A DNA stretch of 64,000 nucleotides from Candidatus Berkelbacteria bacterium (GCA_016432625.1 CP066697.1:586561-650560), one strand, 5' to 3'. Shown: positions 36,297-52,041, counted from the stretch's first letter. The notes: generated by a model not told the origin, from the sequence alone. Program-made: numbers and translations.

Positions 36297-38585
36297 TTAG
36301 TGCCCCTTCTCGGTTGATGCCGTGACCAATGCGGGCGGTTTCTTATCTTGCAGCTCCACTCGGGGCGCTGAGAGCGGTCCCTCCAGGATAGCGCCGTCGA
36401 TTTTCTCCGGCGGCTCAGTCAACACCGGCAGTTCGAAGATAAAGTCGCTCCCCTTACCCTCCTCCGACTCCACCCAGATGCGGCCCTTGTGCAATTCGAC
36501 AAAATTCTTACTGATGTACAGACCTAGGCCAGTACCTTTCTGCTCATCAATTTCGCGTTTGACTTGGGAGAACTTCTGGAACAGTTTCTTCTGGCCGTCT
36601 GCGGATATGCCGCGGCCGGTATCGATAACGTCAAAGCGAAGCTTGCCGGCATCGGCACCGATTTTCATGACAATGCCACCTTTTTCGGTGTATTTAATCG
36701 AGTTGCCGACTAAGTTGACGATAACCTCGCGGATTCGGTCGGGATCGCACCAAGTTTCTGGGACAGCCTTTTTGTCGGCTTCGAGTTTTATCGTCAGTTT
36801 CTTGGCGTCAACCTTTACCTGCAGCTCGTGTAGGACAGACTCGGCCAGGTCGTAAAGATTGGTCTTGGCAAATTTCATCTTGACGCGACCCTGTTCAATA
36901 CGGGAGACGTTCAGGAGGTCAAGAATCAGTTCGGCGAGACGTTTTGAGGAGTCGTAGGCGCGGTGCAAGTAGACGCTAGCCTTCTTATCAACCTTACCCA
37001 TGTGCTCATCCAGAATCATCGAGAGGTAGCCTTCAACGGCGGCGAGTGGGGTATTGAGCTCGTGAGAAGCCATGGAGATGAACTCGTCCTTGAGCTTATC
37101 GAGGTCAGCCAGGTATTCATTGGCGCTCTTTAACTGCTCAAAGGCGTAAGCCCGTTGGATCGCCAGCGAGGTCTCGTCGGCGATTGCCGTTGCCATATCG
37201 ACGTCGCGCTCTTCAAGCTGCTCCTTGGGCACGCGATAGGCAAACAGCATCACGCCTAGCGGTTCCTTGCCGGCAAACAGCGGCACTGCCAAGACGTATT
37301 TTAGGCCCGTTAAGGTCTGAATCGTCGCCGCAACAGGTTTGCCAATTGGCGGAGAGATGAAGTCACTGAGACGAGTGGATTCCTTGAGCTGGTGTTCAAT
37401 CAGGGCGTTATGCAGCATGTTGAAGTCTTTCTTAATCGGATAGCTATACCGGTCAAGGTCGCTACCGACAAGGCTGTATATCTTCTTTGTGAATTCGTTA
37501 GAGGAGATGGCGTAGGCGGCTAAATGACCTCCTTTTACCAGGTTTAGGAGCGCACCGTTGCAGTTGTCGAATTGTTTGGGAATCTCATCGAGGATTGCCT
37601 GCAGCATTGGCCTCATTTCATTCTGGTTAAGCACCATCTTTGAGACCTTCTGCAACGCCGCTAGGTTTTTATTCCGCTGCTCCAGTTCCTTTAGAGTCTC
37701 AGTTTTCTCCGCCGCCAGCTGTTCGATCTCCTTCCTTCTGGCAATTTCCCGTGAAACGTTACGAACTAGGGAGTAGCTCCCTATGGCTACTAACACAGTG
37801 ACTAAGGACTTTAGGAGTAGCTCCCCTGCTGACCTAGAGAGGAAGATTTGAGTCAGGAGCACAATATTTAGCCCTAATGCCACCACAGCCGTCACGACTG
37901 CCCTGATATCGAAAAGTCGATGCGCTACTATCGAATATGCAGTCCCCAACACGAATAGAATGGAAGAATAATTTCCGACCTTATAATAACGGTCTGAACC
38001 AACAATAGGACGTACGACGTAATAAACTATGAGATTTACTGCGACTACTGCCGTGATACCCAGGAAAAAGATCTGCAACTGACTCTTTTCTTGGCCTTGA
38101 GCTTCTTTGTATTTAATCAGGAAATGATAAATCGAGGCAACGAAGACAACGAACAGGAAGGTTAGAAGAAGGTAGTATCCCTGCCCAGTAATTAGCTCGC
38201 TCCCGAACTCTTTGAAAGTGACTCCACTAACAACGAGATTGGAAAACAATGATATTGCTGCAAGGAGGGCGCCCAGGAAATATGCGAGTTTTGTCGTTAA
38301 CCCATTGTGTTTATGGGAGTGCGGAAAAATAAAAGAGAAGTGAAGTAGTATCGGCCCAAGAAACGCCAGGGAAACAAAAACAAGACGGTTGAAGAGTAGT
38401 GATAGAGATTCTTGGCGAAAATAGTCAGATAAAAATGCAAAAGTTATCCAGCCGAGAATGGTTGTTACTAGGGTGGCAAAGACCAGATTTGAATTCTTTT
38501 TCCTGTCTTGTGCGATGACCGCAATAGTGATTGTGATACCCACAAGATCGATGAGCGGAACGATAAAGTTATCGAGGTATTGCAT
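36297..38585 (-). CDS. sensor histidine kinase: multi-TM sensor domain + GAF + HisKA + HATPase_c
   Basis: About 8 N-terminal TM helices, GAF-like middle, H-box FISMASHELNTPLAAVEGY, N/G1/G2 ATPase boxes. Confidence 0.85.
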   Translation of the reverse strand: MQYLDNFIVPLIDLVGITITIAVIAQDRKKNSNLVFATLVTTILGWITFAFLSDYFRQESLSLLFNRLVFVSLAFLGPILLHFSFIFPHSHKHNGLTTKLAYFLGALLAAISLFSNLVVSGVTFKEFGSELITGQGYYLLLTFLFVVFVASIYHFLIKYKEAQGQEKSQLQIFFLGITAVVAVNLIVYYVVRPIVGSDRYYKVGNYSSILFVLGTAYSIVAHRLFDIRAVVTAVVALGLNIVLLTQIFLSRSAGELLLKSLVTVLVAIGSYSLVRNVSREIARRKEIEQLAAEKTETLKELEQRNKNLAALQKVSKMVLNQNEMRPMLQAILDEIPKQFDNCNGALLNLVKGGHLAAYAISSNEFTKKIYSLVGSDLDRYSYPIKKDFNMLHNALIEHQLKESTRLSDFISPPIGKPVAATIQTLTGLKYVLAVPLFAGKEPLGVMLFAYRVPKEQLEERDVDMATAIADETSLAIQRAYAFEQLKSANEYLADLDKLKDEFISMASHELNTPLAAVEGYLSMILDEHMGKVDKKASVYLHRAYDSSKRLAELILDLLNVSRIEQGRVKMKFAKTNLYDLAESVLHELQVKVDAKKLTIKLEADKKAVPETWCDPDRIREVIVNLVGNSIKYTEKGGIVMKIGADAGKLRFDVIDTGRGISADGQKKLFQKFSQVKREIDEQKGTGLGLYISKNFVELHKGRIWVESEEGKGSDFIFELPVLTEPPEKIDGAILEGPLSAPRVELQDKKPPALVTASTEKGH

Positions 38586-39367
38586 TACTCCCCGGCCAGA
38601 TGAAGAATGTGCGGATCGAAGCTTATAAAGTCCGGCGCCTTTTTCACTGGCAAGCCAAGAACGAGACGCTTTATTGCAATTACCGACAATGCGGCAGTAG
38701 AGTAAGCAGCACTAGCTGGCTGTGGGATATTATCTAGCCTGCCCTCTATTACATCGTTTAGAACTGGGCTCAGGTACTCGGGGATTATTCCAGTGTAATA
38801 GGCCATGAACTTGTCTCTAAGTCCCGAGTCATTTCCCCGCTCGCTCTCTGTAATCTCAAGCATCTCTTCCAGAGACTTACTATCCTTTGTAAAGATAAAA
38901 ATGCCTCCGCCCCAGCCAATATCAACTGGATATACCACGGGGAGTCCCATCTTTTTGCATTGTCGGTGCAGCTCTACGACAGCCATAGGAGACTCTAGAG
39001 GGTCTATAGCATCTACGACCACATCGATACCTTCAAGGGCGGCTGAAATATTAGAGCTGTCTAAAAAACTACCTATTTCTTTAACGTGAATGCGCCTATT
39101 GAGCTTCTTGAGTCTTCTAGCTAAAGCCTCGACTTTTGGCTGCCCGAGATCATCGGAACTGTACTCCTGGCGATTAAGATTGCTCTCCTCCACTACGTCA
39201 CCATCAGCTAGTACGATGTGGTGGAAACCGGTTCTGGCTACCCCCACCGCGATGACCGATCCGATTCCACATCCAGCAATGAGTACGGTCTTCCCTGCTA
39301 GTTCATGGTACTGTTTCTCTGAAAGAAGACCCAGGTTCCTACTTAGAAATGCCTTATTAACCTCCAT
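38585..39367 (-). CDS. ThiF/MoeB/HesA-family E1-like adenylyltransferase
   Basis: Rossmann motif VLIAGCGIGSVIAVGVARTGF and ESNLNRQ; 260 aa; no rhodanese domain. Confidence 0.8.
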   Translation of the reverse strand: MEVNKAFLSRNLGLLSEKQYHELAGKTVLIAGCGIGSVIAVGVARTGFHHIVLADGDVVEESNLNRQEYSSDDLGQPKVEALARRLKKLNRRIHVKEIGSFLDSSNISAALEGIDVVVDAIDPLESPMAVVELHRQCKKMGLPVVYPVDIGWGGGIFIFTKDSKSLEEMLEITESERGNDSGLRDKFMAYYTGIIPEYLSPVLNDVIEGRLDNIPQPASAAYSTAALSVIAIKRLVLGLPVKKAPDFISFDPHILHLAGE

Positions 39368-39383
39368 TGAATACAGTATACAT

Positions 39384-39929
39384 TCACAGCTTTAGACGGA
39401 CAGGATAGTTCATAGTATTCATGTATTCGTTCGAAGGAGAGCCAATCTCCACGAAGTCATATCCCCTCTTCTTCAGGCTTTTAAGTAACCAGTCCTCTAC
39501 AACAGCGTAAATATTCTTGACGTCATTCTCTTTGACAATCTTTAATATTTCTTCAGCCAGTAAACGAAAAATTTCTCGTCGTGTCTCTTGCTTGCGACGG
39601 TACGCTTTAGCGATCATAAAACGCGAGACTTCACAAGAATGGCCCATATCTTTTTCTTCGGGCAGTTCGAAATGCTCGAAAATCGGCAACGCTTTTTCCG
39701 CGGGCAGTATAACCCTAGCGTAGCCAGCTAGGCGTCGCCCAATCAGTACAACTACGTGAATGGACTGCCCATCGTACTCATCGGACTCTCGACGGTGCTG
39801 GTATTTATCGCTTTCAAGAAAGCCCTTCTCTTCCACGTAAACCCGGTAACGAAGTTCCGCAATCTTCGGAAACAAATCATCGTTGACAAGTATTCTCTCT
39901 ACGTGTGGCCGAGCCCTGAGTAATAACAT
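39384..39929 (-). CDS. LuxI / N-acyl-amino-acid-synthase-like GNAT N-acyltransferase
   Basis: Motifs RYRVYVEEKGF, ESDEYD, VVVLIGRRLAGYARVILP and SCEVSRFMI match the autoinducer-synthase/NAS fold pattern (R..VF..E.GW; E.D.YD; G.L.G..RL.P; E.SRF). Confidence 0.6.
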   Translation of the reverse strand: MLLLRARPHVERILVNDDLFPKIAELRYRVYVEEKGFLESDKYQHRRESDEYDGQSIHVVVLIGRRLAGYARVILPAEKALPIFEHFELPEEKDMGHSCEVSRFMIAKAYRRKQETRREIFRLLAEEILKIVKENDVKNIYAVVEDWLLKSLKKRGYDFVEIGSPSNEYMNTMNYPVRLKL

Positions 39930-40226: not shown

Positions 40227-41246
<1,020 letters not shown>

Positions 41247-41257
41247 AGGAGGTCGTC

Positions 41258-42340
41258 ATGTCTGAAATCGTTCGCGTCGCAACAAAAGCGATGAGGATGA
41301 TGCTCGGCGAGCAAGACGACCCTGAACTCATCCTTCTCTCCTTCCCCGGAAGTTCTGGTGCGAGAGTGTCGCTTTTTAGACACGCTCGCACCAATTCTCT
41401 CTATGCAGTGAAGTGCGTGGCGCAGTCACGGGTTTCACTAATGGACGAGATCGGAAGAAGAAACGCACTAACGCCTTACCTGCCGGATCACCTCCCGCAG
41501 GTATTATGGTGCCAAGTGTTGGACGGCTTCGAGGTCATGATCTCCGAGTGTAAGGGGATACATTCCCTCCATCACCTCATTATCAACTCCAACGTGCCTC
41601 ACAGTCGTTTACTAGGAGTCTGGAAGGACTTTATAGAGGCGCTACTGCGAATGTGGCAAGGTTCCGAGCACCAGTTCAATGAAGCTCTGTGCCCGCGCTT
41701 CTTTCCCGCCCGGCTGGGTAGGATTGAGCAGGGTATTCGTAATGCGACCGTTGGCAAGACCAAGCTCTCCGAGTGTTGGGATATGCCAGTGGTCGTCAAC
41801 GGTAGCGAATACCAGTCTATCGCAAAATCGTTCGAGGCGATTGCCCAGGTGGGCAAGCCAAAAATGGGCGTAGTGTGCCACGGCGATCCTCAGCCCAGCA
41901 ATATCGTTGTCGGGACGAGGTACTCATGGTACTGCGTAGACTGGGAGTGGGCAGGCCCTCATCAGGATTGGAGAATGATGTTGGCCAATCTCTACGGGTG
42001 GTGGTCTACCCGTTGCAGCGTCTTGTCTACCGATGCCGTCTTGCGAGTGTCTCGAAATCGTCTTGAAATCGAACACAGCTCGTACGTGCCGACCCACTTA
42101 CAACCGTACCAAGACATCGCGCGCTCCGTTGCTTCGACGATGTCAGCTGGATTTCCGAGTGAGGAGACGACAAATGACGTTAACCGGTTTCTCGCCGCGC
42201 TCTACTTTGGGGAGATTAGATTTCTTCACATGTGGGGACGCGAGGCTTTCGCTGAAACAATGCTGGCTCAGGCCATCACTACGATTAGCGGATCATATCG
42301 GGGCGCTAACGCACAGTCGTTCAGATTCCCTCAACAATAA
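41258..42340 (+). CDS. APH/ChoK-like phosphotransferase (protein-kinase-like fold)
   Basis: Brenner motif VCHGDPQPSNIVV and D-W-E metal-binding motif YCVDWEWAG; start 12 nt after the trpS stop. Confidence 0.6.
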   Translation: MSEIVRVATKAMRMMLGEQDDPELILLSFPGSSGARVSLFRHARTNSLYAVKCVAQSRVSLMDEIGRRNALTPYLPDHLPQVLWCQVLDGFEVMISECKGIHSLHHLIINSNVPHSRLLGVWKDFIEALLRMWQGSEHQFNEALCPRFFPARLGRIEQGIRNATVGKTKLSECWDMPVVVNGSEYQSIAKSFEAIAQVGKPKMGVVCHGDPQPSNIVVGTRYSWYCVDWEWAGPHQDWRMMLANLYGWWSTRCSVLSTDAVLRVSRNRLEIEHSSYVPTHLQPYQDIARSVASTMSAGFPSEETTNDVNRFLAALYFGEIRFLHMWGREAFAETMLAQAITTISGSYRGANAQSFRFPQQ

Positions 42341-42351
42341 GGAGTAGGCAT

Positions 42352-43197
42352 ATGTATCGAACGTTCATGACTCAACAAAACTTCGACTTTGTCCAGCAGG
42401 CCATAAGGCGCCTAGCTGGGGAGGTCGAGGCAAAAGACGGGGACGGAAGCTTCTGGGTGAACTACGGCAGCTTCGTGCTGAACCAACAAACGCCCGAGAG
42501 CGATCTTGACCTGCTCTTCATCCACAGTCAGCCAACCGCCGTACGAAGAATCCAGTCATCTTTCAGTGGCCACGACGTTACGATCTACTCGCTCAACAGA
42601 AGAGATTTTGTTAGCGACGGTCAACGCAGGGTGTTTGGAGGATACTTCGGCGGTAAGGTTCTTAACCCCCTGGTTACGTTCAATGCCTCGGAGAAGGATC
42701 AAAGCATGCTACTGGAGGTCGGTGGGTTATTCATCGGCCAATTCGCTTCTGCGATAGCAGATAAGCATGTTCGGAGAACCTCCACGAAGGCAAACCTTGC
42801 GGCAGATTCGGTCCTAGCAAGACTCCATCTTTGCCCTTGGTATCGAAGCTACTTTCTGCGGTACTTCACCTCACCGACTTTCCCACAGCTGTGGGACAAG
42901 ATGTCGGAGGTGACTACCCTGTCTTTCCTGAAAGCAGGGATAGTGACGCAGGACGACGACAACTTTCGCTACCTAAATACGCTCTCACTCGCGGATTTAC
43001 ACGAGACTGCCCTTGAGGCAGTTGCCCGATTCTGGGCGTTAGGTAGCTGTCTACACGGTGCTTTACCCGACTTTCCGGCATTTTACATGCAGAAGGCCGA
43101 GCAGTACGTGCGGGACAACCGACTAGAAAATCGCCTGGAGGAGATGATGAGTTTTCTCCAAGCCCAGTCCAACACAGGAGGAACCCATGTTAACTGA
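42352..43197 (+). CDS. Pol-beta-superfamily nucleotidyltransferase
   Basis: Minimal NTase motif NYGSFVLNQQTPESDLDLLFIH (G-S-x9-13-D-h-D); 281 aa. Confidence 0.6.
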   Translation: MYRTFMTQQNFDFVQQAIRRLAGEVEAKDGDGSFWVNYGSFVLNQQTPESDLDLLFIHSQPTAVRRIQSSFSGHDVTIYSLNRRDFVSDGQRRVFGGYFGGKVLNPLVTFNASEKDQSMLLEVGGLFIGQFASAIADKHVRRTSTKANLAADSVLARLHLCPWYRSYFLRYFTSPTFPQLWDKMSEVTTLSFLKAGIVTQDDDNFRYLNTLSLADLHETALEAVARFWALGSCLHGALPDFPAFYMQKAEQYVRDNRLENRLEEMMSFLQAQSNTGGTHVN

Positions 43198-44221
43198 GTC
43201 CTGGCTTCAAGACAGGATGCGATTGGCCGCAGCTGAGGCGACTGTTACCGTCAAGCAGTTTGCGCTTGAGACGATCGCAGATTCGCCAGACGACGCGTTC
43301 ACCGAGATACGTAACGGGTTCGCACGAGTCGGCGTCTTCGCGTTCCAGAACCCGGTACCGGTTTTCGAAGCCATGCTCGACCGGAAACAGTTCTCTGTTC
43401 TCGTCGGTATGCGCCCGAACGCGGTATTTCATCTCGGACATCTTACGCTTATGCGAGAATTGCATTGGCTCATCCAGCAAGGCGGCCAACCGATCTTCGT
43501 GTTTGCGGGATATGAAGCTGATCGACATATCACGACAAGTGAGGCAGAGCAGGAGACGATGCGCTTTGATCAAGCGTACCGGAAGTTCACCGGGACTCCA
43601 TTGCCGGCAACCGCAGTGAGCTTCTCCGATCAAGACAGTCAAGAGCTGAAAGTCCTAGAGTTAGGCGCTGCGAAGTGCTTATCTACAAGGAAGGTTCTTC
43701 AGTTGTATGGCTGGGACGCGAGCATCCCACTCGCTTCGTTACGCGTACCTGCCATTACGGCAGCAGCGTTTCTTCTGCCTACGACCCTCTACCCGAAACG
43801 GCCGGCACTGGTACTTTCGGACATCCATCAAGTCACACATGCAGAAGCCGCCAAGATCGTGGCCTGCAAACTACAACTCCCTTCGCCCAGCTACTCGTAT
43901 CGCCTGCTTCTTCCGAGTCTGAGGGGCCCGACAAAGAGAATGAGCGCTAAGGACGCCAAGTCGCTCATCACGCTCATTGAACCAACGGAGCAGGTGGAAC
44001 GTAAGCTACGTCAATGCTTTTCCGGAGGTCGTCAAAGCCCCGAGGAACAGCGAAGCGCGGGCGGCGACCCACAGCACTGTTCCTTCTTCCGGATTGCCGA
44101 GCTGCTACAGCCTTACGAGACTACAGCGCAGATGCATGAGGACTGTGTTTCAGGAGCATCGCTGTGTGGTGAGTGCAAAAAGAAGCACTTGAGCAATATC
44201 GCAAGGAGGATCCATGGATAG
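43187..44221 (+). CDS. divergent TrpRS/TyrRS-like class I aminoacyl-tRNA-synthetase paralog with Cys-rich C-terminus
   Basis: HIGH-like GMRPNAVFHLGHLTLM, KMSKS-like KRMSAKD, C-terminal DPQHCSFF...CVSGASLCGECKK; about 55 aa N-terminal extension; overlaps the NTase gene by 11 nt. Confidence 0.65.
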   Translation: MLTESWLQDRMRLAAAEATVTVKQFALETIADSPDDAFTEIRNGFARVGVFAFQNPVPVFEAMLDRKQFSVLVGMRPNAVFHLGHLTLMRELHWLIQQGGQPIFVFAGYEADRHITTSEAEQETMRFDQAYRKFTGTPLPATAVSFSDQDSQELKVLELGAAKCLSTRKVLQLYGWDASIPLASLRVPAITAAAFLLPTTLYPKRPALVLSDIHQVTHAEAAKIVACKLQLPSPSYSYRLLLPSLRGPTKRMSAKDAKSLITLIEPTEQVERKLRQCFSGGRQSPEEQRSAGGDPQHCSFFRIAELLQPYETTAQMHEDCVSGASLCGECKKKHLSNIARRIHG

Positions 44222-44429: not shown

Positions 44430-44450
44430 CCCGGTCACCCGGGATTTTTT
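44430..44450 (+). terminator. attenuator terminator hairpin (CCCGG-TCAC-CCGGG + U6) 20 nt upstream of the ligase start
   Basis: 5 bp all-GC stem, 4 nt loop, TTTTTT at 44445-44450; upstream GGTGAC (44392-44397) is complementary to GTCACC (44434-44439) inside the hairpin. Confidence 0.45.
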
Positions 44451-44469
44451 GTACCTCACAAGGAGCCCT

Positions 44470-45225
44470 ATGATTACCCTTTCGACATACGCTTCGCAGT
44501 TCGCTTTTGCGCCCGAACACACCCTGCATATAGGGGTGGAGCGCGAAAGCTTCCTCGTCCAACACAGCGAGATCGTACCAGCAGCGTTCGAGGTGCTGAA
44601 AATGCTACCTCAACCGCGATTCGGTTACGAACTTTCAGCGTGCCAACTGGAAGACCGCGTCGGTCCGTGTCAGTTAGCTCAACTACCAGACGAGCTGAAA
44701 CGAAACGATGAGTTAGCCGAGGAGGCACTGAGTCTTCTCGGTCTGCGGCGACTGTTCCTAGAAGTCGCTCCTGACTCCATGCCGCTCGACCACTACCCCT
44801 CGAAACGTTACGACGAGATCGTCGCCAAGATCACCAAAGAGCGTCTTCTCGCTGCTTGCCAGGTGACGGGCACCCACGTTCATGTCGGTATGCCCGATGC
44901 GGATACGGCCATGAGGGTACATAGCGCCGTCATCCCTTACACCGACGAGCTCTGTCAAATGGGTGACCACTCTGGTGGTCGTCGCTTGCAGATCTATCGG
45001 ATTATGGCTGCCGACTATCAGCCAATCGCCTGGCGGGGCTGGGATCACTTCGAGGCCTACGCCATCGAGCATGACTTCGTCAACGACCCACGCTCGTGCT
45101 GGCACCTGATTCGCTTGTCGGTTCACGGCACGATCGAGTTTCGAATGTTTGGCAGCCCGCGTTCCAACGACGACGTCGTCAACTGGGCAGAACGTTGCTA
45201 CTCACTGTGTCGTGACGCCCTCTGA
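44470..45225 (+). CDS. short GCS2/YbdK-family carboxylate-amine ligase (gamma-glutamyl-cysteine-ligase-like)
   Basis: IGVERESFLV, QVTGTHVHVGMPD and WHLIRLSVHGTIEFRMFG match the YbdK motifs (GIELE..V; HVHVG; W.IRPS.HGT.EVR); AGGAG RBS before the ATG at 44470 (the ORF track offers an upstream TTG at 44449); lacks the C-terminal third of YbdK. Confidence 0.6.
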   Translation: MITLSTYASQFAFAPEHTLHIGVERESFLVQHSEIVPAAFEVLKMLPQPRFGYELSACQLEDRVGPCQLAQLPDELKRNDELAEEALSLLGLRRLFLEVAPDSMPLDHYPSKRYDEIVAKITKERLLAACQVTGTHVHVGMPDADTAMRVHSAVIPYTDELCQMGDHSGGRRLQIYRIMAADYQPIAWRGWDHFEAYAIEHDFVNDPRSCWHLIRLSVHGTIEFRMFGSPRSNDDVVNWAERCYSLCRDAL

Positions 45226-45253
45226 TGAATGGGGGGCCACTCCCCCATTCATC
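45224..45253. terminator. perfect 12 bp inverted repeat between convergent genes (bidirectional terminator candidate)
   Basis: GATGAATGGGGG-gccact-CCCCCATTCATC; overlaps the TGA of the ligase (45223-45225) and the stop of the deacylase (45252-45254). Confidence 0.6.
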
Positions 45254-46112
45254 AAACCTTTTCAATTTTACTCAGTAAAATAAACGACTCCTCGCCAACC
45301 TTTTGCTTTGGCCTGGGAAATAAGATGTAGGTATTATCTGCCGCAATGAATTTTCGCTGGCTATCCCGGGCGAACTGTTGAGCTGGCTCAAGTTTTTGGA
45401 AGTTAACGTAGGTTTGGTCAAATTCAAAATCAGCGGTTTCCCGCTTCACTACCTCGGCCACGCGGTACAATGCAGGCCGTGATTGGATTGCCTTTGGGGC
45501 ATCGACCAGCCCGTACTGGCCAAGAAAGGTTAGGACTGATTGCTCTGCTACAGGGACGTATTTCTCAGGCTCAAAGTTTGAACCGCACTCCAAACAGATA
45601 CCAATCTTGCCCTGCGAGGTCATATAACAATCGGTTCCACCGGTTGCGACTTCGCTAATACCGGTCAAAATCGCGCTGATCGGTAGGTGACCAGCAAGTT
45701 CTACGCCAGCCGAATCAGTGATAGCAAAGACATCCGTCTCTTGACCATTGTAACCGTGCAGATCGAGTAAAGCGTCACACTTGTTCAGTAACGCCATTAG
45801 CTCACGAGCCCGCTCATCCTCCCAGGTCTTGCCGTCGTTCCCGGTGAAGAAACAGCGGTTAAGATTCTTTAAAATTGACCGTTGTCTTCGTGCTATAGCA
45901 GGTGGATTGGCTAAAACAAAGTAGGCAGTTCCTGCTTTAATCTGGAGCGTTGGCAAAAGATTTTGGAGAGCCTGCACACCTGCCAGCTCGTTACCATGGA
46001 CCCCGGCAAAAACAGCGACTGTCTTGCCAGGCTTTGGTCCCCGTTTAATTGTCACAGTTTCATTGATTGTCATTCGTAGCCGCATCTTACCATCACGATT
46101 CTGATTAATCAC
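45252..46112 (-). CDS. AstE/AspA-family (succinylglutamate desuccinylase / aspartoacylase-like) zinc deacylase
   Basis: Zinc-binding VAVFAGVHGNELAGV and LDLHGY motifs; 286 aa. Confidence 0.7.
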   Translation of the reverse strand: MINQNRDGKMRLRMTINETVTIKRGPKPGKTVAVFAGVHGNELAGVQALQNLLPTLQIKAGTAYFVLANPPAIARRQRSILKNLNRCFFTGNDGKTWEDERARELMALLNKCDALLDLHGYNGQETDVFAITDSAGVELAGHLPISAILTGISEVATGGTDCYMTSQGKIGICLECGSNFEPEKYVPVAEQSVLTFLGQYGLVDAPKAIQSRPALYRVAEVVKRETADFEFDQTYVNFQKLEPAQQFARDSQRKFIAADNTYILFPRPKQKVGEESFILLSKIEKV

Positions 46113-46134
46113 CGCTCAGTGACCTCTGAGAGAC

Positions 46135-46163
46135 TTGACCGCTCAGCTGACAAACACTACAAT
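46135..46163 (+). promoter_or_regulatory. putative promoter of the tRNA-Trp operon (TTGACC-17-TACAAT)
   Basis: TTGACC 46135-46140, 17 nt spacer, TACAAT 46158-46163; followed by a 9 bp leader hairpin CGTTGCCTT/AAGGTAACG (46173-46196) before the tRNA. Confidence 0.45.
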
Positions 46164-46218
46164 TCGCCTAACTCGTTGCCTTAACATAAAGGTAACGGAG
46201 ACCATCCCAATTGTTTGC

Positions 46219-46290
46219 GCCCTCGTAGCCTAGTGGTTAAGGCAACGGTCTCCAAAACCGTCGACGCAGGTTCGAATCCTGTCGAGGGTG
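46219..46290 (+). tRNA. trnW: tRNA-Trp (anticodon CCA)
   Basis: Hand-folded cloverleaf: acceptor GCCCTCG/CGAGGGT (one G-U), U8, D-arm GCCT-AGTGGTTAA-AGGC, anticodon stem ACGGT/ACCGT with loop CT-CCA-AA, T-arm GCAGG-TTCGAAT-CCTGT, discriminator G; CCA not encoded. Confidence 0.85.
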
Positions 46291-46322
46291 CAAACAAAAT
46301 CCCGAATCGTGAGGAAAATACT

Positions 46323-46535
46323 ATGCCACTTTCACCGACCCAGTCGGTCTCATTCTGGTGCGAAGAGTGCCAATGGAAGACTGGTGGTGTCATCATCGAC
46401 GGGAAACCCGTCTGTCCGAAGTGCCGAGGCAAGCTCCTTGGCATTAACTTTTGTCCTAAGTGCAAAATAGGCACGGCGCTTGAAGCCTGCCCGCTCTGCC
46501 ACGACCCTATCAAGTCGGACAGCGATCCCGGATAG
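46323..46535 (+). CDS. 70 aa Cys-rich double zinc-ribbon mini-protein (four CxxC pairs)
   Basis: MPLSPTQSVSFWCEECQWKTGGVIIDGKPVCPKCRGKLLGINFCPKCKIGTALEACPLCHDPIKSDSDPG; GAGGAAAA RBS 8 nt upstream of the ATG; 30 nt downstream of tRNA-Trp. Confidence 0.5.
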   Translation: MPLSPTQSVSFWCEECQWKTGGVIIDGKPVCPKCRGKLLGINFCPKCKIGTALEACPLCHDPIKSDSDPG

Positions 46536-46544
46536 GAGGGGATC

Positions 46545-47825
46545 ATGAAAGACCCATACAGTTGGCCTGGACAGGCCACGGAACTAGTCATGCGTGATGC
46601 CGAGAGCGCCCTTGGCGAATGTAGTTGTTTGCCCTGGGAGTGGGCCACATTTGGCTACCCCGGCAGAGCACCACTGCCAGTCGCGCTCGAAGCACTCACC
46701 CTCGCTCAAAAGATCAATCCCAACAATATCGGTGACCACTCGCTTCCCTTCCGACAGGCGGGGCATAAGCAAACCGAGCACGGGTTTGACGGTACCCAAC
46801 GATTGGAGCGTGAAGCAATTGCCAGCCTCGTCCAGCTTGCCGGTGGCGACCCAGCCACAACTGGCGGTTACCTCTGCGAGGGTGGCACCTCTGCCAACCT
46901 TGCCGGTCTCTGGATGGGACGCAATTACTTGCGAGCTCAACCTGGGGCAAAGCGAACGGTGATTATCACGACTCGTCTTGCCCACTACAGCATCCTGAAG
47001 GCAGCCGATATCCTCGGCTTCAACCCGAACGACATCATCTACGCGCCGTGTAACCGCTCCGGCGGTATATCGGTTTGCGACATCACTGAACTGGCGTATC
47101 GACTCCAGTCGGAAAGGATCACCGGCGTACTGTTCGTCTGTACGGCTGGGAGCACGATGATGGGCAGCGTCGACGATGTCAGCCAAGTTAACGAACTTCG
47201 CGCTGGCTTGAGGCTAGCCGGTATCTCGACGTACATCCATGTCGATGCGGCCTTCGGCGGGTTCGTGCTGCCGTTTCTGGCCAAGCCGGTACGCTTCGGC
47301 TTCGACCAGGGAGCTGACTCTGTCGTCATTGACCCCCACAAAATGGGGGGCGTACCGTTCGGTTGCGGAGCAATCCTCTACCGCGAGCAGTACGCCGGAC
47401 CAGTGGCGGTTAAGGCACCGTACTTGAACAGCGAACAGGACTGGACAATCAACGGCAGCCGCAGCGGCGCTAACGCTGTTGCTCTTTGGGCAGTGCTTGA
47501 AGAGCAGGGCTTTGATCAACTTGCCAAGTGCGTGCAGCAATGCATCGCTTTGCGCGACTACGCCAGAGAGCTATTGGACCAGGTCGACCACTTCCAAGTG
47601 CACGTCGGCCAAACCAACCAGCTTTGCCTGGAGATCACCGACCTTTCGGTGGTGGAGAGACTTGCTAGTCGAGTCTGTAACCACCCTTACTACATGCATG
47701 TCGCCCCGTTCCCCAGACGGTTCGACGACCCCAACTGCCAGGAAGGGCGCGCGCTCAAGATGATCTTGATGCCGCACCACACCAAGCAGATGGTGGACGA
47801 GTTCGTTAGACAGGTGAAACTATGA
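46545..47825 (+). CDS. group II PLP-dependent amino-acid decarboxylase
   Basis: PLP-lysine motif SVVIDPHKMGGVPFGCGAI and overall fold-type I layout; 426 aa. Confidence 0.8.
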   Translation: MKDPYSWPGQATELVMRDAESALGECSCLPWEWATFGYPGRAPLPVALEALTLAQKINPNNIGDHSLPFRQAGHKQTEHGFDGTQRLEREAIASLVQLAGGDPATTGGYLCEGGTSANLAGLWMGRNYLRAQPGAKRTVIITTRLAHYSILKAADILGFNPNDIIYAPCNRSGGISVCDITELAYRLQSERITGVLFVCTAGSTMMGSVDDVSQVNELRAGLRLAGISTYIHVDAAFGGFVLPFLAKPVRFGFDQGADSVVIDPHKMGGVPFGCGAILYREQYAGPVAVKAPYLNSEQDWTINGSRSGANAVALWAVLEEQGFDQLAKCVQQCIALRDYARELLDQVDHFQVHVGQTNQLCLEITDLSVVERLASRVCNHPYYMHVAPFPRRFDDPNCQEGRALKMILMPHHTKQMVDEFVRQVKL

Positions 47826-48076
47826 CAGCGGAACAGAGCGCAGCTCTACCTCAGCTGACATGGACCCCGGAAATGATAGAGACACTTCGATCTGAAGCTT
47901 GGGAGGCCGTGAGCAATCGCGAGCACTCAGCCATGAAGATCGAGCTGCTTCTCGCCCAAATCGAGGAGGTCCTCGAGCGCAAGCTCGTCAGCGGTAATGA
48001 GGTGTTGGTTTGGCACGAACGCCGAATCGAACTCCAAGAGCTGCACCAAATCGCCACTAGCCGCTGGGAAAACTAA
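47822..48076 (+). CDS. hypothetical protein (84 aa, 4 Trp)
   Basis: ATGA overlap with the decarboxylase stop; no motif. Confidence 0.4.
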   Translation: MTAEQSAALPQLTWTPEMIETLRSEAWEAVSNREHSAMKIELLLAQIEEVLERKLVSGNEVLVWHERRIELQELHQIATSRWEN

Positions 48077-48799: not shown

Positions 48800-49170
48800 G
48801 TATTGTACCTGTTAGGAAAGGCGGCGAGTAGTTCTGCGAAAGCGAAGGCTGCGTTTGATATCAAACGCAGCCAGATCCTATTTTCGGCGTTGCCAAGGCA
48901 GGGTGAGCCTACAAGTTGCGTGGAGTCATGCTCCGTGCTGGGCCGATAACAACCGGCCCGTTAGTTTCTGCTTTCCGCAGGGCGTGTTTCCCGACCAGTG
49001 TGGGTCAAGACGGTCCTCCGTGAGAAACGGTCGGTACGGCGTTCGGATCACCGTACAAGTGACGAGTGACGCGCGTGGGCGTCGTAAGCTATCGATGTAC
49101 TTTTGACGGTCCTCCCCGCAACCTCACTGCTGGTTGCACTTAAAGTCTATGCCTCACTTTGTAACTGTCA
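48800..49170 (+). ncRNA. candidate structured ncRNA in a 375 bp GC-rich intergenic region (possible reduced RNase P RNA; identity unresolved)
   Basis: No credible ORF; many GC hairpins; a 24 nt perfect palindrome; collinear blocks resembling RNase P conserved regions (GGAAAG..UAG, GGCAGGGUG, CCCGACCAGUG, AGUGACGAGUGACGCG, ACUGUCAAGACUUAUCG); P4 pairing could not be verified by eye. Confidence 0.25.
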
Positions 49171-52041
49171 AGACTTATCGAATTTGACAAAGAGAGCTTC
49201 GTCGCCTGACGACTCTAGTCCAACCTTGCTCTCGGCAACGTTCAGTCCTGCTAAACCACTTGCTGTAGCGACGTCTTTAGCGCGGGTTTGGAAAATATTT
49301 AGGTAGGCTTCGTCTGACGTAAAGTAAGTGAGTGCGGCTTTCTCACCAACAACAAGACCGGCTTTTTTACGTGCATCTTGCAGCAGACGGATAAGCTCGC
49401 GGTACCGTCCTTCCGCCTCAAGTTCTGGCGTCAACTTTGTTTCAAGCCGGATCATGCCGCCTTCAACGTTGACGCGGAACCAACCCTCATCGGCCTTGTC
49501 TTGAAAGTCGACTTGCTGGACGTTGACTTCATCGCGGAGGATTTCGCTAAATTCTGGTCTGTTCTCGAGGTCGGTAAACCCTTTGACGCTCAAGCTAGAT
49601 AGTGGCTGACGCAGCGAGATGCCTTCCTGAGAACGTAACATGTGAGTGGTGGAGGCGATCGAACGAACCTGATCCATCAGGCGCAACAAATCGCTCTGCT
49701 CATTGATCGAGACCTCATCAGCCGTCGGATAGTTAGCTAGGTGCACCGATTCCTTTTCGGTCAAAGTCTGATAGATGTGCTCGGCGGTAAATGGCAGAAC
49801 TGGCGCGACGGCTTCGGCAAAGCGCACTAGCACGTTGTAGAGGGTCTGTAAGGCCGCTGCATCGCCAGCCACGAAACGATCACGGCTACGACGTATATAC
49901 CAGGTCGAGAGGTCTTCGATGAAGGGGCGGATAACCCTAGCGGCGCCTGGAAGATCGAAATTACCTAGACTCGCCTGGCTTGTCGCGATAAGCTCCTCAA
50001 GACGAAGACTGATCCAGCGGTCGAGCACATCTGTGCTTTGAGCTTCGGCTGGCTGCCAGGAGTGAGCTTTAGCGTAAGTGAGTAAATACCGAAACGAGTT
50101 ATGTAGGACGTTTAGAGCACGGGCAGAATCGCGAATGTCAGTTTCGCTGATAGCCATATCCTCCCCCTGCATCACCCGGCTCGACATAAAGTAAAGACGT
50201 AGCGCTTCGGCGCTATGTTTCTCTATTGTCGCCTTTGGGTCTGGGTAGTTGCCGTAGGATTTTGACATCTTGCGCCCATCGGTCCCAAAAAGGACGCCCG
50301 TAGTAACAACGTTACGAAAGGCGGCCGATTGCTTCAGAGCGTTGCCAAGAACGTGCAAATAATAAAACCATCCCCGAAGTTGCCCGGTGTATTCAATTAT
50401 AAAATCTGCCGGGAAGTGGGCCTCAAAAACTTCTTTATTCTCAAAGGGGTAATGATCTTGGGCGTACGGCATCGAGCCCGACTCGAACCAGCAATCGAGC
50501 ACTTCTTTTACCCGACGGGCTTTCTTGCCACTAGGCAGCGTCAGTTCAACTTGGTCGATAAACGGTCGGTGCAAGTCAGTTATCTTTTGGCCACTTAGCT
50601 TTTCTAATTCCTCGATCGAGCCTGGGACAAAGATTTCGCCGTCTTCTGTCTCCCAAACTGGAATTGGCGAGCCCCAGTAACGCGTTCGCGACAGCGACCA
50701 GTCCGGTGCAGTTTCAAGATTGTGGCGGAAGCGACCAGAGCCAAAATGCTCCGGCACCCATTTGATCTGTTCGTTAGTTTTTAGTAGCTCATCGCGTAGC
50801 GGATCAATCCGCAGATACCAGGAAACCTGGGCCTTATAGATAAGCGGCGTCTCGCAGCGGTAGCAATGCGGGTATGAGTGCGCGATAGATTCTTGTTTGA
50901 ATAACAAACCGCGTTTCTCAAGATCAGCCGTCACGATCGGATCGGCTTTTTTGTAGTAAAGCCCCGCCAATGGCTCGCCGAGTTCTGGTTTGAAATGGCC
51001 TTGGTCGTCAAGCGTTTCGAGCACTGTTAAACCGACTTGTTCGCCGAGCGTTGAGTCGTCTTCGCCAAATCCCGGTGCGATGTGAACAATTCCGGTACCC
51101 TCCTCCATGCTAACGAACGTCGCAGGATAAACCTTATAGTCAGTCTCACTGTTGGCAGCGTTGTGAGGAAAAAGTGGCTCGTACTGTTGGCCAAGTAGCT
51201 TTTCGCCTTTAAAGCGCTCAACAATTTCTAGATCAAGGTCCCCGTAACGCTCCAGCGCTTGATGGGCAAGGATGTAACGCTTCTCTCCGTCCGTAACCTT
51301 GACGTACTCAGCCTCGGGGTCAACGGCCAGGCCGAAATTAGCCGGCAAGGTCCAAGGCGTTGTCGTCCACGCGAGTAACGAGACGTCGTCGCCCTCAGCC
51401 CGGAAGGCAACCGTAACACCAGGATCGGTGACATCGCGGTAGCTACCTTCATCCATCGTGACCTCAAACTTACTTAGGGGCGTGGCGCAGCGTGGGCAAT
51501 ACAGCGAAGTGCGACGGCCACGGTAAATCAAATCTTTGTCATACAACTGTTTAAACGCCCACATCACCGACTCCATGTACGCCAAATTGTCGGTACGATA
51601 GGCGTTTTCCATATCAACCCAGCGGCCGATATGATCGATATACCAGCGCCAAGCAAGGGACGTTTCGGCTACATACTTGCGACACTCTGAAATGAATTTC
51701 TCCACTCCCAGCGCCTCGATATCTTTTTTAGTTTTTAAGCCCAACTTCTTCTCTACCTGATTCTCCGCCGGTAAGCCGTGTACGTCCCAGCCCCAGATGC
51801 GGCGGACGTACTTGCCCTTCATTGTTTGGTAGCGCGGAATTACATCTTTGGCGATTGTCGGTAGGAGCGTCCCCCAGTGCGGCATGCCAGTAATAAACGG
51901 TGGCCCGTCGTAAAACGAGAAAACTTCGCCCCCAGAATTTTTCGCTAAGGATTTGGCATAAATATCGTTCTTAGACCAATAGCTAAGGACGGACTCTTCG
52001 AGCTCAAATAACGACTTGAACGGTTCGGCCTCAAACTTCAT
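49168..52041 (-). CDS. ileS: isoleucyl-tRNA synthetase
   Basis: GWDVHGLPAE, KMSKSYGN, editing domain; the start is most likely the internal MKFEAEPF (about 52041), giving an 11 nt overlap with hisS, rather than the track start 52209. Confidence 0.9.
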   Translation of the reverse strand: MKFEAEPFKSLFELEESVLSYWSKNDIYAKSLAKNSGGEVFSFYDGPPFITGMPHWGTLLPTIAKDVIPRYQTMKGKYVRRIWGWDVHGLPAENQVEKKLGLKTKKDIEALGVEKFISECRKYVAETSLAWRWYIDHIGRWVDMENAYRTDNLAYMESVMWAFKQLYDKDLIYRGRRTSLYCPRCATPLSKFEVTMDEGSYRDVTDPGVTVAFRAEGDDVSLLAWTTTPWTLPANFGLAVDPEAEYVKVTDGEKRYILAHQALERYGDLDLEIVERFKGEKLLGQQYEPLFPHNAANSETDYKVYPATFVSMEEGTGIVHIAPGFGEDDSTLGEQVGLTVLETLDDQGHFKPELGEPLAGLYYKKADPIVTADLEKRGLLFKQESIAHSYPHCYRCETPLIYKAQVSWYLRIDPLRDELLKTNEQIKWVPEHFGSGRFRHNLETAPDWSLSRTRYWGSPIPVWETEDGEIFVPGSIEELEKLSGQKITDLHRPFIDQVELTLPSGKKARRVKEVLDCWFESGSMPYAQDHYPFENKEVFEAHFPADFIIEYTGQLRGWFYYLHVLGNALKQSAAFRNVVTTGVLFGTDGRKMSKSYGNYPDPKATIEKHSAEALRLYFMSSRVMQGEDMAISETDIRDSARALNVLHNSFRYLLTYAKAHSWQPAEAQSTDVLDRWISLRLEELIATSQASLGNFDLPGAARVIRPFIEDLSTWYIRRSRDRFVAGDAAALQTLYNVLVRFAEAVAPVLPFTAEHIYQTLTEKESVHLANYPTADEVSINEQSDLLRLMDQVRSIASTTHMLRSQEGISLRQPLSSLSVKGFTDLENRPEFSEILRDEVNVQQVDFQDKADEGWFRVNVEGGMIRLETKLTPELEAEGRYRELIRLLQDARKKAGLVVGEKAALTYFTSDEAYLNIFQTRAKDVATASGLAGLNVAESKVGLESSGDEALFVKFDKS

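Follow-up and report, generated by a model that had tools for sequence, protein, structure and literature searches.

A kinase-nucleotidyltransferase-TrpRS-like gene cassette tied to trpS in Candidatus Berkelbacteria and other Patescibacteria-type genomes, with a diverged archaeal-type tryptophanyl-tRNA synthetase paralog as its signature gene

The trpS-linked cassette

This study concerns a 64,000-nucleotide stretch of DNA from a Candidatus Berkelbacteria bacterium (GCA_016432625.1 CP066697.1:586561-650560), referred to here as the window, and in particular a gene on its plus strand, at 43187..44221, that encodes a diverged homolog of tryptophanyl-tRNA synthetase (TrpRS). An earlier note on this DNA had pointed to the gene as a divergent TrpRS-like paralog near the canonical trpS, and the open reading frame (ORF) listing of the window agrees: the gene is an ORF of 344 aa with an ATG start, and it is the third gene 3' of a bacterial-type trpS. 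The main point that goes beyond that note is that the TrpRS-like gene is part of a conserved, self-contained triad, in which it follows genes for a kinase and a nucleotidyltransferase (NTase) and which is almost always headed by trpS. The existence of this kinase-NTase-TrpRS-like cassette tied to trpS, with the TrpRS-like gene as its signature, can be stated firmly.

The cassette is small, comprising four genes in 4 kb, all on the plus strand. Its first gene, trpS (40230..41246), encodes a bacterial-type tryptophan--tRNA ligase that scores 253 bits against TIGR00233 (cut-off 176.75) and matches Pfam tRNA-synt_1b at 9e-58. The second gene (41258..42340) encodes an APH/choline-kinase-like kinase of 360 aa, and the third (42352..43197) an NTase of the Pol-beta superfamily, 281 aa long, with a Tam41-like architecture of an NTase domain followed by a winged-helix-like domain. 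The gaps between trpS and the kinase gene (41246/41258) and between the kinase and NTase genes (42340/42352) are 11 nt each, and the NTase and TrpRS-like ORFs overlap by 11 nt; trpS, the kinase, the NTase and the TrpRS-like gene therefore form one tightly packed operon. The junction of the last two genes, as read from the sequence, spans 43177..43197. A Shine-Dalgarno sequence, GGAGG (43177-43181), lies 5 nt before the TrpRS-like ATG at 43187, the junction reads ...caGGAGGaacccATGttaacTGA, and the TGA stop of the NTase gene (43195-43197) falls within codons 3-4 of the TrpRS-like gene. The translational coupling to the kinase and NTase that had been proposed from the overlap is upheld. The identical 11-nt overlap was called at four other loci of the cassette (L016, L017, L018 and L021 in the set described below).

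A terminator-like hairpin, CCCGG-TCAC-CCGGG followed by a T-run, is found about 210 nt past the TrpRS-like stop (44430..44453, plus strand; consensus scan only) and likely marks the end of the four-gene operon, even though such sites are not more frequent in the region than expected by chance. Indeed, neither the promoter scan nor the terminator scan gave more sites than shuffled sequence, and single sites are to be read as hints only. At the other end of the operon, no T-box or other known RNA element was found 5' of trpS, and the only Rfam matches in the window are two tRNAs.

The first two gene products have unusual tryptophan contents. The TrpS protein contains no tryptophan (0%) and no cysteine, while the kinase encoded next to it has 11 tryptophans, or 3.06% of its residues compared to a background of 1.16% in the ORFs of the window, and nine of the 11 are invariant in a 10-sequence alignment. 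A tryptophan-free TrpS followed by a tryptophan-rich kinase could make downstream expression sensitive to the supply of Trp-tRNA.

Family, type and fold of the TrpRS-like protein

The protein encoded at 43187..44221 is a TrpRS homolog of the archaeal/eukaryal type. Pfam tRNA-synt_1b matches it at 6e-11, and the best NCBIfam model is PRK12285, for archaeal/eukaryal TrpRS (1e-33, 116.7 bits). It falls under every TrpRS equivalog cut-off, those of the PRK12285 series being 320-891 and that of TIGR00233 176.75 (score 71.8). Profile searches of the PDB were led by the TrpRS of A. pernix (3a04, 3e-35), followed by those of P. horikoshii (3jxe, 4e-33) and human (7e-33). An AlphaFold model that was built from 53 members of the family has a pLDDT of 95.1 and a pTM of 0.93, and contains the complete class Ic fold, with an N-terminal domain, a Rossmann catalytic domain and a helical anticodon-binding domain; Foldseek matched this model to the TrpRSs of human, yeast and A. 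pernix (E 2e-20 to ~1e-18, TM 0.76-0.79). The possibility of a housekeeping TyrRS or another standard aminoacyl-tRNA synthetase (aaRS), which the earlier note had named as a refuting outcome, was rejected: TyrRS models matched only at E 1e-3 to 1e-4, and the top structural and sequence matches were all TrpRS.

The distance from the bacterial-type enzyme encoded three genes upstream is as large as had been claimed, with BLASTP aligning the two proteins over the HIGH region only (24 bits). A different explanation is needed for the N-terminal extension of about 55 residues that had been described as an addition. The query aligns with human TrpRS from about residue 6, which corresponds to Trp88, onward, and an N-terminal domain of ~65-150 residues is standard in archaeal/eukaryal TrpRS (PMC2831299, PMC2275098); the supposed extension is the ordinary N-terminal domain of this type.

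The family to which the protein belongs comprises 67-71 full-length cluster representatives of 341-370 aa, with 33-89% identity to the query and 33 invariant columns common to its members. It is a closed family in profile searches: no full-length member falls under 371 bits, and the full-length match that comes next, at 127 bits, is a canonical archaeal TrpRS. Those members that carry a name all derive from Patescibacteria-type metagenome-assembled genomes and metagenomes (Berkelbacteria, Falkowbacteria, Woesebacteria, Kaiserbacteria and Parcubacteria). Two cassette contigs, L006 and L011, belong to bins labelled 'uncultured Gammaproteobacteria'; these contigs are 7-8.4 kb long and mis-binning is likely. 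From the family and fold together it can be said firmly that the gene encodes a conserved, archaeal-type TrpRS paralog with an Fe-S motif, and that it is not a standard TrpRS.

Retained and replaced residues

The family was aligned with three known TrpRSs (human, A. pernix and P. horikoshii) and the canonical archaeal protein P0127, and residues were counted in 53 members. Canonical residue numbers are those of the human enzyme unless stated, and the roles of these residues are taken from published structural work (PMC1538984, PMC2275098, PMC2831299).

The nucleotide-binding signatures of class I enzymes are recognisable throughout the family. The HxGH signature (HLGH, aa 82-85, 43430..43441) has invariant H82, G84 and H85, and the equivalent of the KMSAS loop is RMSAK (aa 251-255, 43937..43951). 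The strings FHLGH (aa 81-85) and KRMSAKD (aa 250-256) had been reported correctly but had been taken as degenerate class I motifs, a description that does not hold, since signatures of this kind, such as FHFGH in A. pernix and KMSAS in human, are normal for archaeal/eukaryal TrpRS. The true departures lie elsewhere. In the KMSAS loop, where Lys349 and Ser351 are catalytic (PMC2275098), the alpha-phosphate-binding Lys349 is replaced by an invariant R251, followed by M252 and S253 as the retained equivalents of Met350 and Ser351; M252 is invariant, S253 is serine in 50/53 and threonine in 3/53, and the fifth position of the loop is lysine or arginine in 50/53. The second departure is the replacement of the AIDQ motif by SDIHQ (aa 211-215, 43817..43831), as judged from the alignments to human, A. 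pernix and P0127. In the canonical motif Asp312 binds the ribose 2'/3'-OH and Gln313 binds both the ribose and tryptophan (PMC2275098). The position of Asp312, residue 214 here, is occupied by histidine (25/53), asparagine (20/53) or lysine (7/53), a new invariant aspartate, D212, appears at the position of Ala310, two residues upstream of the lost ribose aspartate, and Q215 is invariant.

The residues that recognise tryptophan have been replaced almost wholesale, by residues that are in turn conserved in the family. Tyr159, which stacks on and hydrogen-bonds to the indole, corresponds to L72 (leucine in 48/53), and Gln194, a second indole hydrogen-bonding residue, to F/V/Y/L106. The alternative indole-binding aspartate of the bacterial and A. 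pernix type (Asp132 in B. stearothermophilus numbering) is also missing, with A/S/T194 in its place. The pair that holds the alpha-amino and carboxylate groups, Glu199-Lys200, is replaced by A111 and G/D/N112, although A. pernix TrpRS likewise reads 'EA' here, and the invariant E110 that adjoins A111 could, to judge from the alignment, substitute for Glu199. Gln284, another alpha-amino contact, is replaced by T/N191.

At both ends of the tRNA, the picture is largely one of retention. The F267-G268 contact to C75 at the tRNA 3' end is kept as Y174-G175-W176, and the acceptor-backbone contacts R321 and R326 are kept as K223 and R/K227-228. The loop that contacts anticodon bases C35 and A36, FSGGR (aa 278-282, 44018..44032), corresponds to human F377, S378, G380 and R381 (PMC1538984): F278 is found in 48/53 members, S279 in 51/53 and G281 in 53/53, and position 282 is R, C or K. 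Further along, G328 (44/53) is equivalent to G428 and K331 (53/53) to the universally conserved anticodon-binding Lys431. The anticodon contact H387 corresponds to Q288 (52/53), and the canonical archaeal P0127 also has glutamine at this position. The exception to retention lies at the discriminator base. The cognate tRNA-Trp of archaeal/eukaryal enzymes has A73 and G1-C72, and the contacts to A73 from the N-terminal helix are replaced, Asp99 by E/variable17 and Lys102 by D/S/V20; Arg106 is replaced by Q24, a substitution that is allowed in canonical enzymes.

The cysteine-rich tail was previously described as a C-x7-C cluster and as a new feature that could bind a metal or an Fe-S cluster. 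The Fe-S possibility stands, while the pattern and the novelty do not. The actual motif is C298-x21-C320-x6-C327-x2-C330, followed directly by K331 (44078..44179); it is invariant, of the [4Fe-4S] type, and shared position by position with A. pernix 3a04, P. horikoshii 3jxe and P0127. A C-x(21-24)-C-x6-C-x2-C motif binds [4Fe-4S] in the anticodon-binding domain of T. maritima TrpRS and is present in other bacterial and archaeal TrpRSs as well (PMC2954223), and the cluster of the TrpRS-like protein is a plausible Fe-S site that matches this known motif. Only 12-27 residues (median 18) follow the last cysteine, compared to 35 in P0127, so the helix at the C-terminus, which packs back onto the catalytic domain, is shorter by ~15-20 residues.

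Structure prediction had been proposed as a way to learn whether the anticodon-binding domain and the tryptophan pocket are preserved. The two halves of the question have different answers: the TrpRS fold and the anticodon-binding domain are kept, but the tryptophan-contacting residues are, by alignment, replaced. The mean top-residue frequency is 0.68 in the anticodon-binding half and 0.64 in the catalytic half. Read from the alignment, this pattern of retained and replaced residues is that of neofunctionalisation under purifying selection rather than decay.

The kinase and the nucleotidyltransferase

The partner genes encode proteins with more distant relationships to known enzymes. The kinase has the invariant motifs of the APH/choline-kinase group (GSSG, AVKC, CHGDxQPSN and DWEW) and weak matches to Pfam APH and Choline_kinase; its signatures are those of a small-molecule kinase rather than a protein kinase. 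In its PDB profile search the top matches were spectinomycin phosphotransferase, at E 0.012, and LicA, a choline kinase, at E 0.034, in a range, 0.01-0.2 for the kinase and NTase searches alike, where E-values are marginal. The wider kinase family consists of 102 representatives among 1.84 billion, all of them APH-like only. No other recognisable family was found among these 102 relatives, two of which are longer proteins without a recognisable fused domain.

The NTase carries the GS...DxD signature and belongs to a family of 54 representatives; no members were found beyond this close family. Its best structural match is Tam41, with 14% identity and without a match to Pfam Mmp37. Tam41, which combines an NTase with a winged-helix domain, transfers CMP to the phosphate group of phosphatidate (PMC7018664). 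By analogy, the pairing of a choline-kinase-like with a Tam41-like protein suggests a route in which a hydroxyl compound would be phosphorylated and then nucleotidylated, X-OH -> X-P -> NDP-X. Direct O-nucleotidylation, as in the ANT enzymes, is equally possible.

Conservation of the cassette across genomes

The examination covered nineteen loci: the window, L001-L018 and L021, with L013 and L003 being one and the same contig. In 19/19 the kinase, NTase and TrpRS-like genes occur together in constant order and orientation, and trpS directly heads this triad in 17 of the 18 loci in which upstream DNA is present, L004 ending at a contig edge. The window trpS is 68-85% identical to the head trpS of 14 other loci. 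In L007 and L011, the head position is occupied by a trpS of a different lineage, with 32% identity and a score above the TIGR00233 cut-off. Since two trpS lineages occur at the head position, trpS has become linked to the triad, or been relinked, on more than one occasion.

The boundaries of the cassette are sharply defined. Comparison of the window with eight other loci shows nucleotide homology over 40232-44199, with 68-72% identity, very nearly from the start of trpS to the end of the TrpRS-like gene, and unrelated sequence on both flanks. Between the window and L016, the TrpS proteins are 83% identical and the other three cassette proteins 62-65%, whereas the isoleucyl-tRNA synthetases (IleRS) are only 39% identical. 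These findings suggest that the cassette is a self-contained module that may spread laterally, although the contrast with IleRS perhaps reflects different IleRS types. The IleRS genes in question lie at 49168-52209 on the minus strand of the window and at 1-1774 of L016, and the L016 protein is 1173 aa long with a His_Phos_1 insertion.

Genes of several further kinds were seen near individual cassettes. Type IV secretion system (T4SS) or conjugation-like genes (VirD4/TrwB, PrgI, TraC and DUF87) lie beside it in L014 (1589-5941) and L017 (1701-4785), a restriction-modification island with methylase, GmrSD and HNH genes together with an M78 peptidase lies near it in L016 (11166-16815), a Schlafen AlbA_2 protein is encoded near it in L007 (7367-7963), and a PrnB/IDO-like protein is encoded upstream of it in L011 (1535-2656). 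These neighbours hint at locations in variable islands and at a link to tryptophan chemistry. Phage collections gave no match to the cassette family, and plasmid collections contained no family member, the only matches there being trpS genes on haloarchaeal megaplasmids with ~26-28% identity. None of the four cassette proteins matched the PADLOC set of anti-phage defence models at a meaningful E-value.

Accessory genes, tRNA-Trp and the flanks

Beyond the invariant core, additional genes follow the cassette in some genomes. In about half of the loci, the TrpRS-like gene is followed by genes for a HAD-like DxDxT protein and a Peptidase_S51/GATase-like protein. A class I/II aminotransferase and a GFO/IDH/MocA oxidoreductase are encoded in L010, L015 and L017, and a TylF-type methyltransferase in L017; tailoring-type genes are present in only a minority of loci and are not part of the invariant core. 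The accessory genes plausibly serve small-molecule chemistry involving aromatic amino acids.

Downstream of the cassette, the window and L021 (an 89%-identical relative) share genes for a GCS2/YbdK-type ligase, an AstE/AspA-type deacylase, tRNA-Trp and a decarboxylase of the aromatic/His type that depends on pyridoxal phosphate (PLP). In the window this block occupies 44449-48076. The carboxylate-amine ligase is 258 aa long, which is short for its family, the deacylase is encoded on the minus strand, and the PLP-dependent decarboxylase resembles MfnA and histidine decarboxylase; there is a 4-nt overlap between the decarboxylase stop and an ORF of 84 aa with 4.8% tryptophan. L021 keeps the block, which is not found in the other cassette loci. 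Between the tRNA-Trp and decarboxylase genes there is a plus-strand ORF of ~70 aa (46323-46535) with four CxxC pairs (CEEC, CPKC, CPKC and CPLC) and the look of a double zinc ribbon; a longer version starting from TTG 46215 overlaps the tRNA gene, and this is probably a false start.

The tRNA-Trp(CCA) gene of the window (46219..46291, plus strand; ARAGORN and Rfam) lies 2 kb past the cassette. It is of the bacterial type, with G73 and a G1.U72 pair and without an encoded 3' CCA, the 3' sequence continuing as ...GC AAAC, and a promoter-like site is found ahead of it at 46135-46163. In L003, the most distant relative (33-35% identity), a tRNA-Trp gene, likewise of the bacterial type, with A1-U72, G73 and an encoded CCA directly follows the cassette. 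No tRNA gene was found within the cassette in any locus examined.

On the other side of the window cassette, divergent from trpS, the minus strand at 38585-39929 encodes a ThiF/E1-like adenylyltransferase and a GNAT of the FeeM/N-acyl-amino-acid-synthase type, the latter related to exosortase-associated acyltransferases. This stretch has 45% GC, compared to 53-56% in the cassette region, and in L021 a class I/II aminotransferase gene occupies the position of the ThiF/GNAT pair.

What the TrpRS-like protein may do

The TrpRS-like protein probably does something other than ordinary tryptophan charging. The reading that we prefer, while holding it at somewhat less than even confidence, is that it is a neofunctionalised enzyme which would dock tRNA-Trp and handle not free L-Trp but some other ligand, which the kinase and NTase would supply or pre-activate. 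This reading is favoured because the amino-acid pocket has been rebuilt, whereas conservation extends to the nucleotide site and to both of the tRNA-binding ends. The protein would still dock tRNA-Trp and bind a nucleotide, and would no longer form ordinary Trp-AMP from free L-Trp as the housekeeping enzyme does. It might instead load or modify the 3' end of tRNA-Trp, or act on the tRNA-bound tryptophan produced by the co-transcribed TrpRS. The ligand may be a Trp-related compound made by the kinase and NTase, which by analogy with choline kinase and Tam41 would pass from X-OH through X-phosphate to NDP-X, or alternatively would take the form X-O-NMP. The co-transcribed canonical TrpRS would either keep up the normal supply of Trp-tRNA-Trp or provide Trp-tRNA-Trp as a substrate. 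The more specific proposal that the triad constitutes a tRNA-Trp-dependent pathway, in which a Trp-related ligand activated by the kinase and NTase is transferred onto tRNA-Trp or Trp-tRNA-Trp, seems to us unlikely as it stands, if well worth keeping in mind.

Several considerations weigh against this interpretation. The amino-acid pocket has been judged from alignments rather than from a ligand-bound structure, and bacterial and eukaryal TrpRSs already differ in the sets of residues that recognise tryptophan, so that a third solution to tryptophan recognition, for example with D212, E110 and H218, is possible. Furthermore, the intact HxGH and xMS motifs speak for an NTP-dependent activation by the protein itself, which weakens the case for the kinase and NTase replacing the activation step, and the likeness of the NTase to Tam41 is structural only. 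Finally, the linkage to trpS is not absolute, as shown by L012 (Woesebacteria), in which the triad lies between ribosomal-protein genes and has no adjacent trpS.

The earlier note had suggested that second aaRS copies of this kind are either antibiotic-resistant immunity enzymes or recruits for aminoacyl transfer in biosynthesis, and the evidence fits neither classic case cleanly: the residues that read tryptophan are gone, unlike in resistant TrpRSs, and the tRNA-binding apparatus is kept, unlike in tRNA-independent ligases. A version of the first case is a serious if doubtful contender, namely an auxiliary TrpRS with a remodelled pocket that still makes Trp-tRNA-Trp and is either insensitive to a drug that mimics Trp or Trp-AMP or a stress isoform, with the kinase and NTase inactivating the compound or helping to make it. 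Such an enzyme would be in keeping with the complete fold, the intact HxGH and xMS motifs and the retention of the Fe-S motif and of the contacts to anticodon and acceptor; the second TrpRS copies so far known serve in resistance or stress (PMC9437257), and the kinase and NTase resemble the aminoglycoside-modifying APH and ANT enzymes. The cassette also behaves as a resistance module might, being self-contained in non-homologous surroundings, in some cases beside T4SS-like or restriction-modification genes, with proteins that are closer between genomes than is IleRS. Against these points stands the absence of the tryptophan-recognition residues, whether of the eukaryal/archaeal or of the bacterial solution, along with that of Lys200, Gln284 and the ribose aspartate, and a score of 117 bits compared to equivalog cut-offs of 320-478 bits. 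Unlike what would be expected of modular resistance genes, the NTase is confined to its close family and the kinase has few relatives, none in a named family, while the accessory aminotransferase, oxidoreductase, methyltransferase, HAD and S51 genes are ill-fitting for simple resistance. In addition, the A73-contacting Lys102 is lost and the local tRNA-Trp has G73, so acceptor recognition must differ from that of the parent type. No known inhibitor pathway of the sort expected around an immunity aaRS could be recognised near the cassette in the loci examined.

The biosynthetic case would take the form of a tRNA-independent ligase, analogous to MshC or PanC, that adenylates an amino or aromatic acid and joins it to a small-molecule acceptor whose synthesis would fall to the kinase, NTase, HAD and accessory enzymes. 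Such a ligase might yield a Trp-related metabolite or an aminoacylated one, perhaps a mimic of Trp-AMP, and the cassette trpS would then serve for self-protection. We regard this as quite unlikely. The remodelled amino-acid pocket would suit it, as would accessory genes typical of amino-sugar, cyclitol and nucleoside tailoring (GFO/IDH/MocA oxidoreductase with aminotransferase, TylF-type O-methyltransferase, HAD phosphatase and APH-like kinase), but these tailoring genes occur in a minority of loci only. tRNA-independent aaRS derivatives normally lose the anticodon-binding domain, which is here as conserved as the catalytic domain, and the residues that contact the CCA anticodon, including the K431 equivalent, are all conserved and most of them invariant; tRNA-Trp genes lie nearby in two lineages. 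The precedent is that class I aaRS paralogs such as MshC are known to act as small-molecule ligases (PMC9437257). Retention of the tRNA-binding determinants together with loss of the amino-acid-binding residues is what would be expected of a sensor of tRNA-Trp, non-catalytic or weakly so, that controls the kinase, the NTase or both according to tryptophan supply, in the manner of the HisRS-like domain of GCN2. The tight translational coupling with the kinase, and the order of a tryptophan-free TrpRS and then a tryptophan-rich kinase in the operon, would also agree with this idea, which we nevertheless consider improbable: the strict invariance of both HxGH histidines, of R-M-S (apart from the S/T exchange noted above), and of E110, D212, Q215 and H218 points to ligand binding and catalysis, and the kinase signatures are of the small-molecule, APH type and not of the protein-kinase type. 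Scarcely any credence can be given to a decaying pseudogene of a laterally acquired archaeal trpS, or to a chance ORF. Low scores against TrpRS models and a C-terminal helix shorter than that of canonical archaeal TrpRS are what decay might produce, but there are ~70 intact, full-length relatives with their shared invariant columns, the structure model is confident, the Shine-Dalgarno sequence and gene overlap are conserved, and no frameshifts were found in any locus; the refuting outcome of a pseudogene, like that of a standard aaRS, was not borne out.

Relationship to known systems

A literature search found no description of a kinase-NTase-TrpRS-like cassette, and the only related report is that of Mukai et al. 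2017 (PMC5370408), which described extra archaeal-type TrpRS homologs, TrpRS-A as well as TrpRS-A-like, in candidate phyla radiation (CPR) bacteria. Some of these homologs have an Fe-S motif and some adjoin a bacterial-type trpS whose product lacks tryptophan residues (PMC5370408); the remark in that report that the bacterial-type TrpRSs of such organisms are without tryptophan residues also holds for the TrpS of the window. The TrpRS-A operon, however, contains a gene for tRNA-Trp(A73) and ORF1, a helical protein of unknown fold, and no kinase or nucleotidyltransferase is mentioned beside the 12 TrpRS-A genes that were reported (PMC5370408). The present cassette, in contrast, lacks an A73 tRNA, G73 being the discriminator of the nearby tRNA-Trp; its TrpRS-like gene is partnered by an APH-like kinase and a Pol-beta NTase, and the TrpRS-like family amounts to ~70 clusters. 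The two are therefore treated here as related phenomena and not as the same family, a distinction that is drawn from the published description.

The archaeal/eukaryal [4Fe-4S] TrpRSs (3a04, 3jxe; T. maritima 2g36) are the closest in structure, sharing the three-domain fold, HxGH, the FSGGR...GG loop, the lysine equivalent to K331 and the four cysteines. The TrpRS-like protein differs from them in being only ~21-26% identical, in its substituted tryptophan-binding residues and in having SDIxQ for AIDQ and RMSxK for KMSAS; furthermore, these enzymes are encoded alone, whereas the TrpRS-like gene is always found with the kinase and NTase genes. Second TrpRSs of the resistance or stress kind keep the tryptophan-recognition residues and full TrpRS activity. 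The indolmycin-resistant TrpRS1 of Streptomyces and TrpRS II of D. radiodurans do offer a parallel as second, divergent TrpRSs beside a canonical one (PMC9437257), but they are of the bacterial type and are not known to be tied to a kinase-NTase pair. For TrpRS, a 2022 review of aaRS duplication lists only the NOS-associated TrpRS II and the indolmycin-resistant TrpRS1, with no non-translational TrpRS-like protein (PMC9437257).

Pairs of a Kennedy-type kinase and nucleotidyltransferase (LicA with its cytidylyltransferase) and Tam41 resemble the choline/APH-type kinase and Tam41-type NTase of the cassette. This likeness is one of fold and weak profiles only, there are no lipid or choline genes, and a TrpRS homolog stands in the place of a phosphotransferase as third partner. 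Reuse of the aaRS scaffold itself has better-known examples. MshC and the cyclodipeptide synthases are without a functional anticodon-binding domain, and the cyclodipeptide synthases also lack HIGH and KMSKS, whereas the TrpRS-like protein keeps both the anticodon-binding domain and HxGH. GluQRS modifies the anticodon base of a tRNA with the cognate amino acid. In all of these, as probably in the cassette protein, a class I scaffold appears outside standard tRNA charging (MshC, GluQRS/YadB and cyclodipeptide synthases; PMC9437257).

If the triad acts on tRNA-Trp, it would represent a new tRNA-dependent chemistry, and the diverged TrpRS scaffold would be of interest for genetic-code engineering; were activation in fact outsourced to separate enzymes, one tRNA would have a second, natural 'charging' chemistry. 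Should the cassette instead make or resist a mimic of Trp-adenylate, it would be a rare case of chemical warfare or immunity in CPR bacteria. In its comparison with known systems, the TrpRS-like family fits neither the pattern of a resistance or stress isoform nor that of a known aaRS-derived enzyme, be it a tRNA-independent ligase or a user of aminoacyl-tRNA. It is an aaRS paralog with an unusual pattern of retained and lost residues and a new, obligate gene partnership, carried as a compact module in the ultra-small genomes of Patescibacteria.

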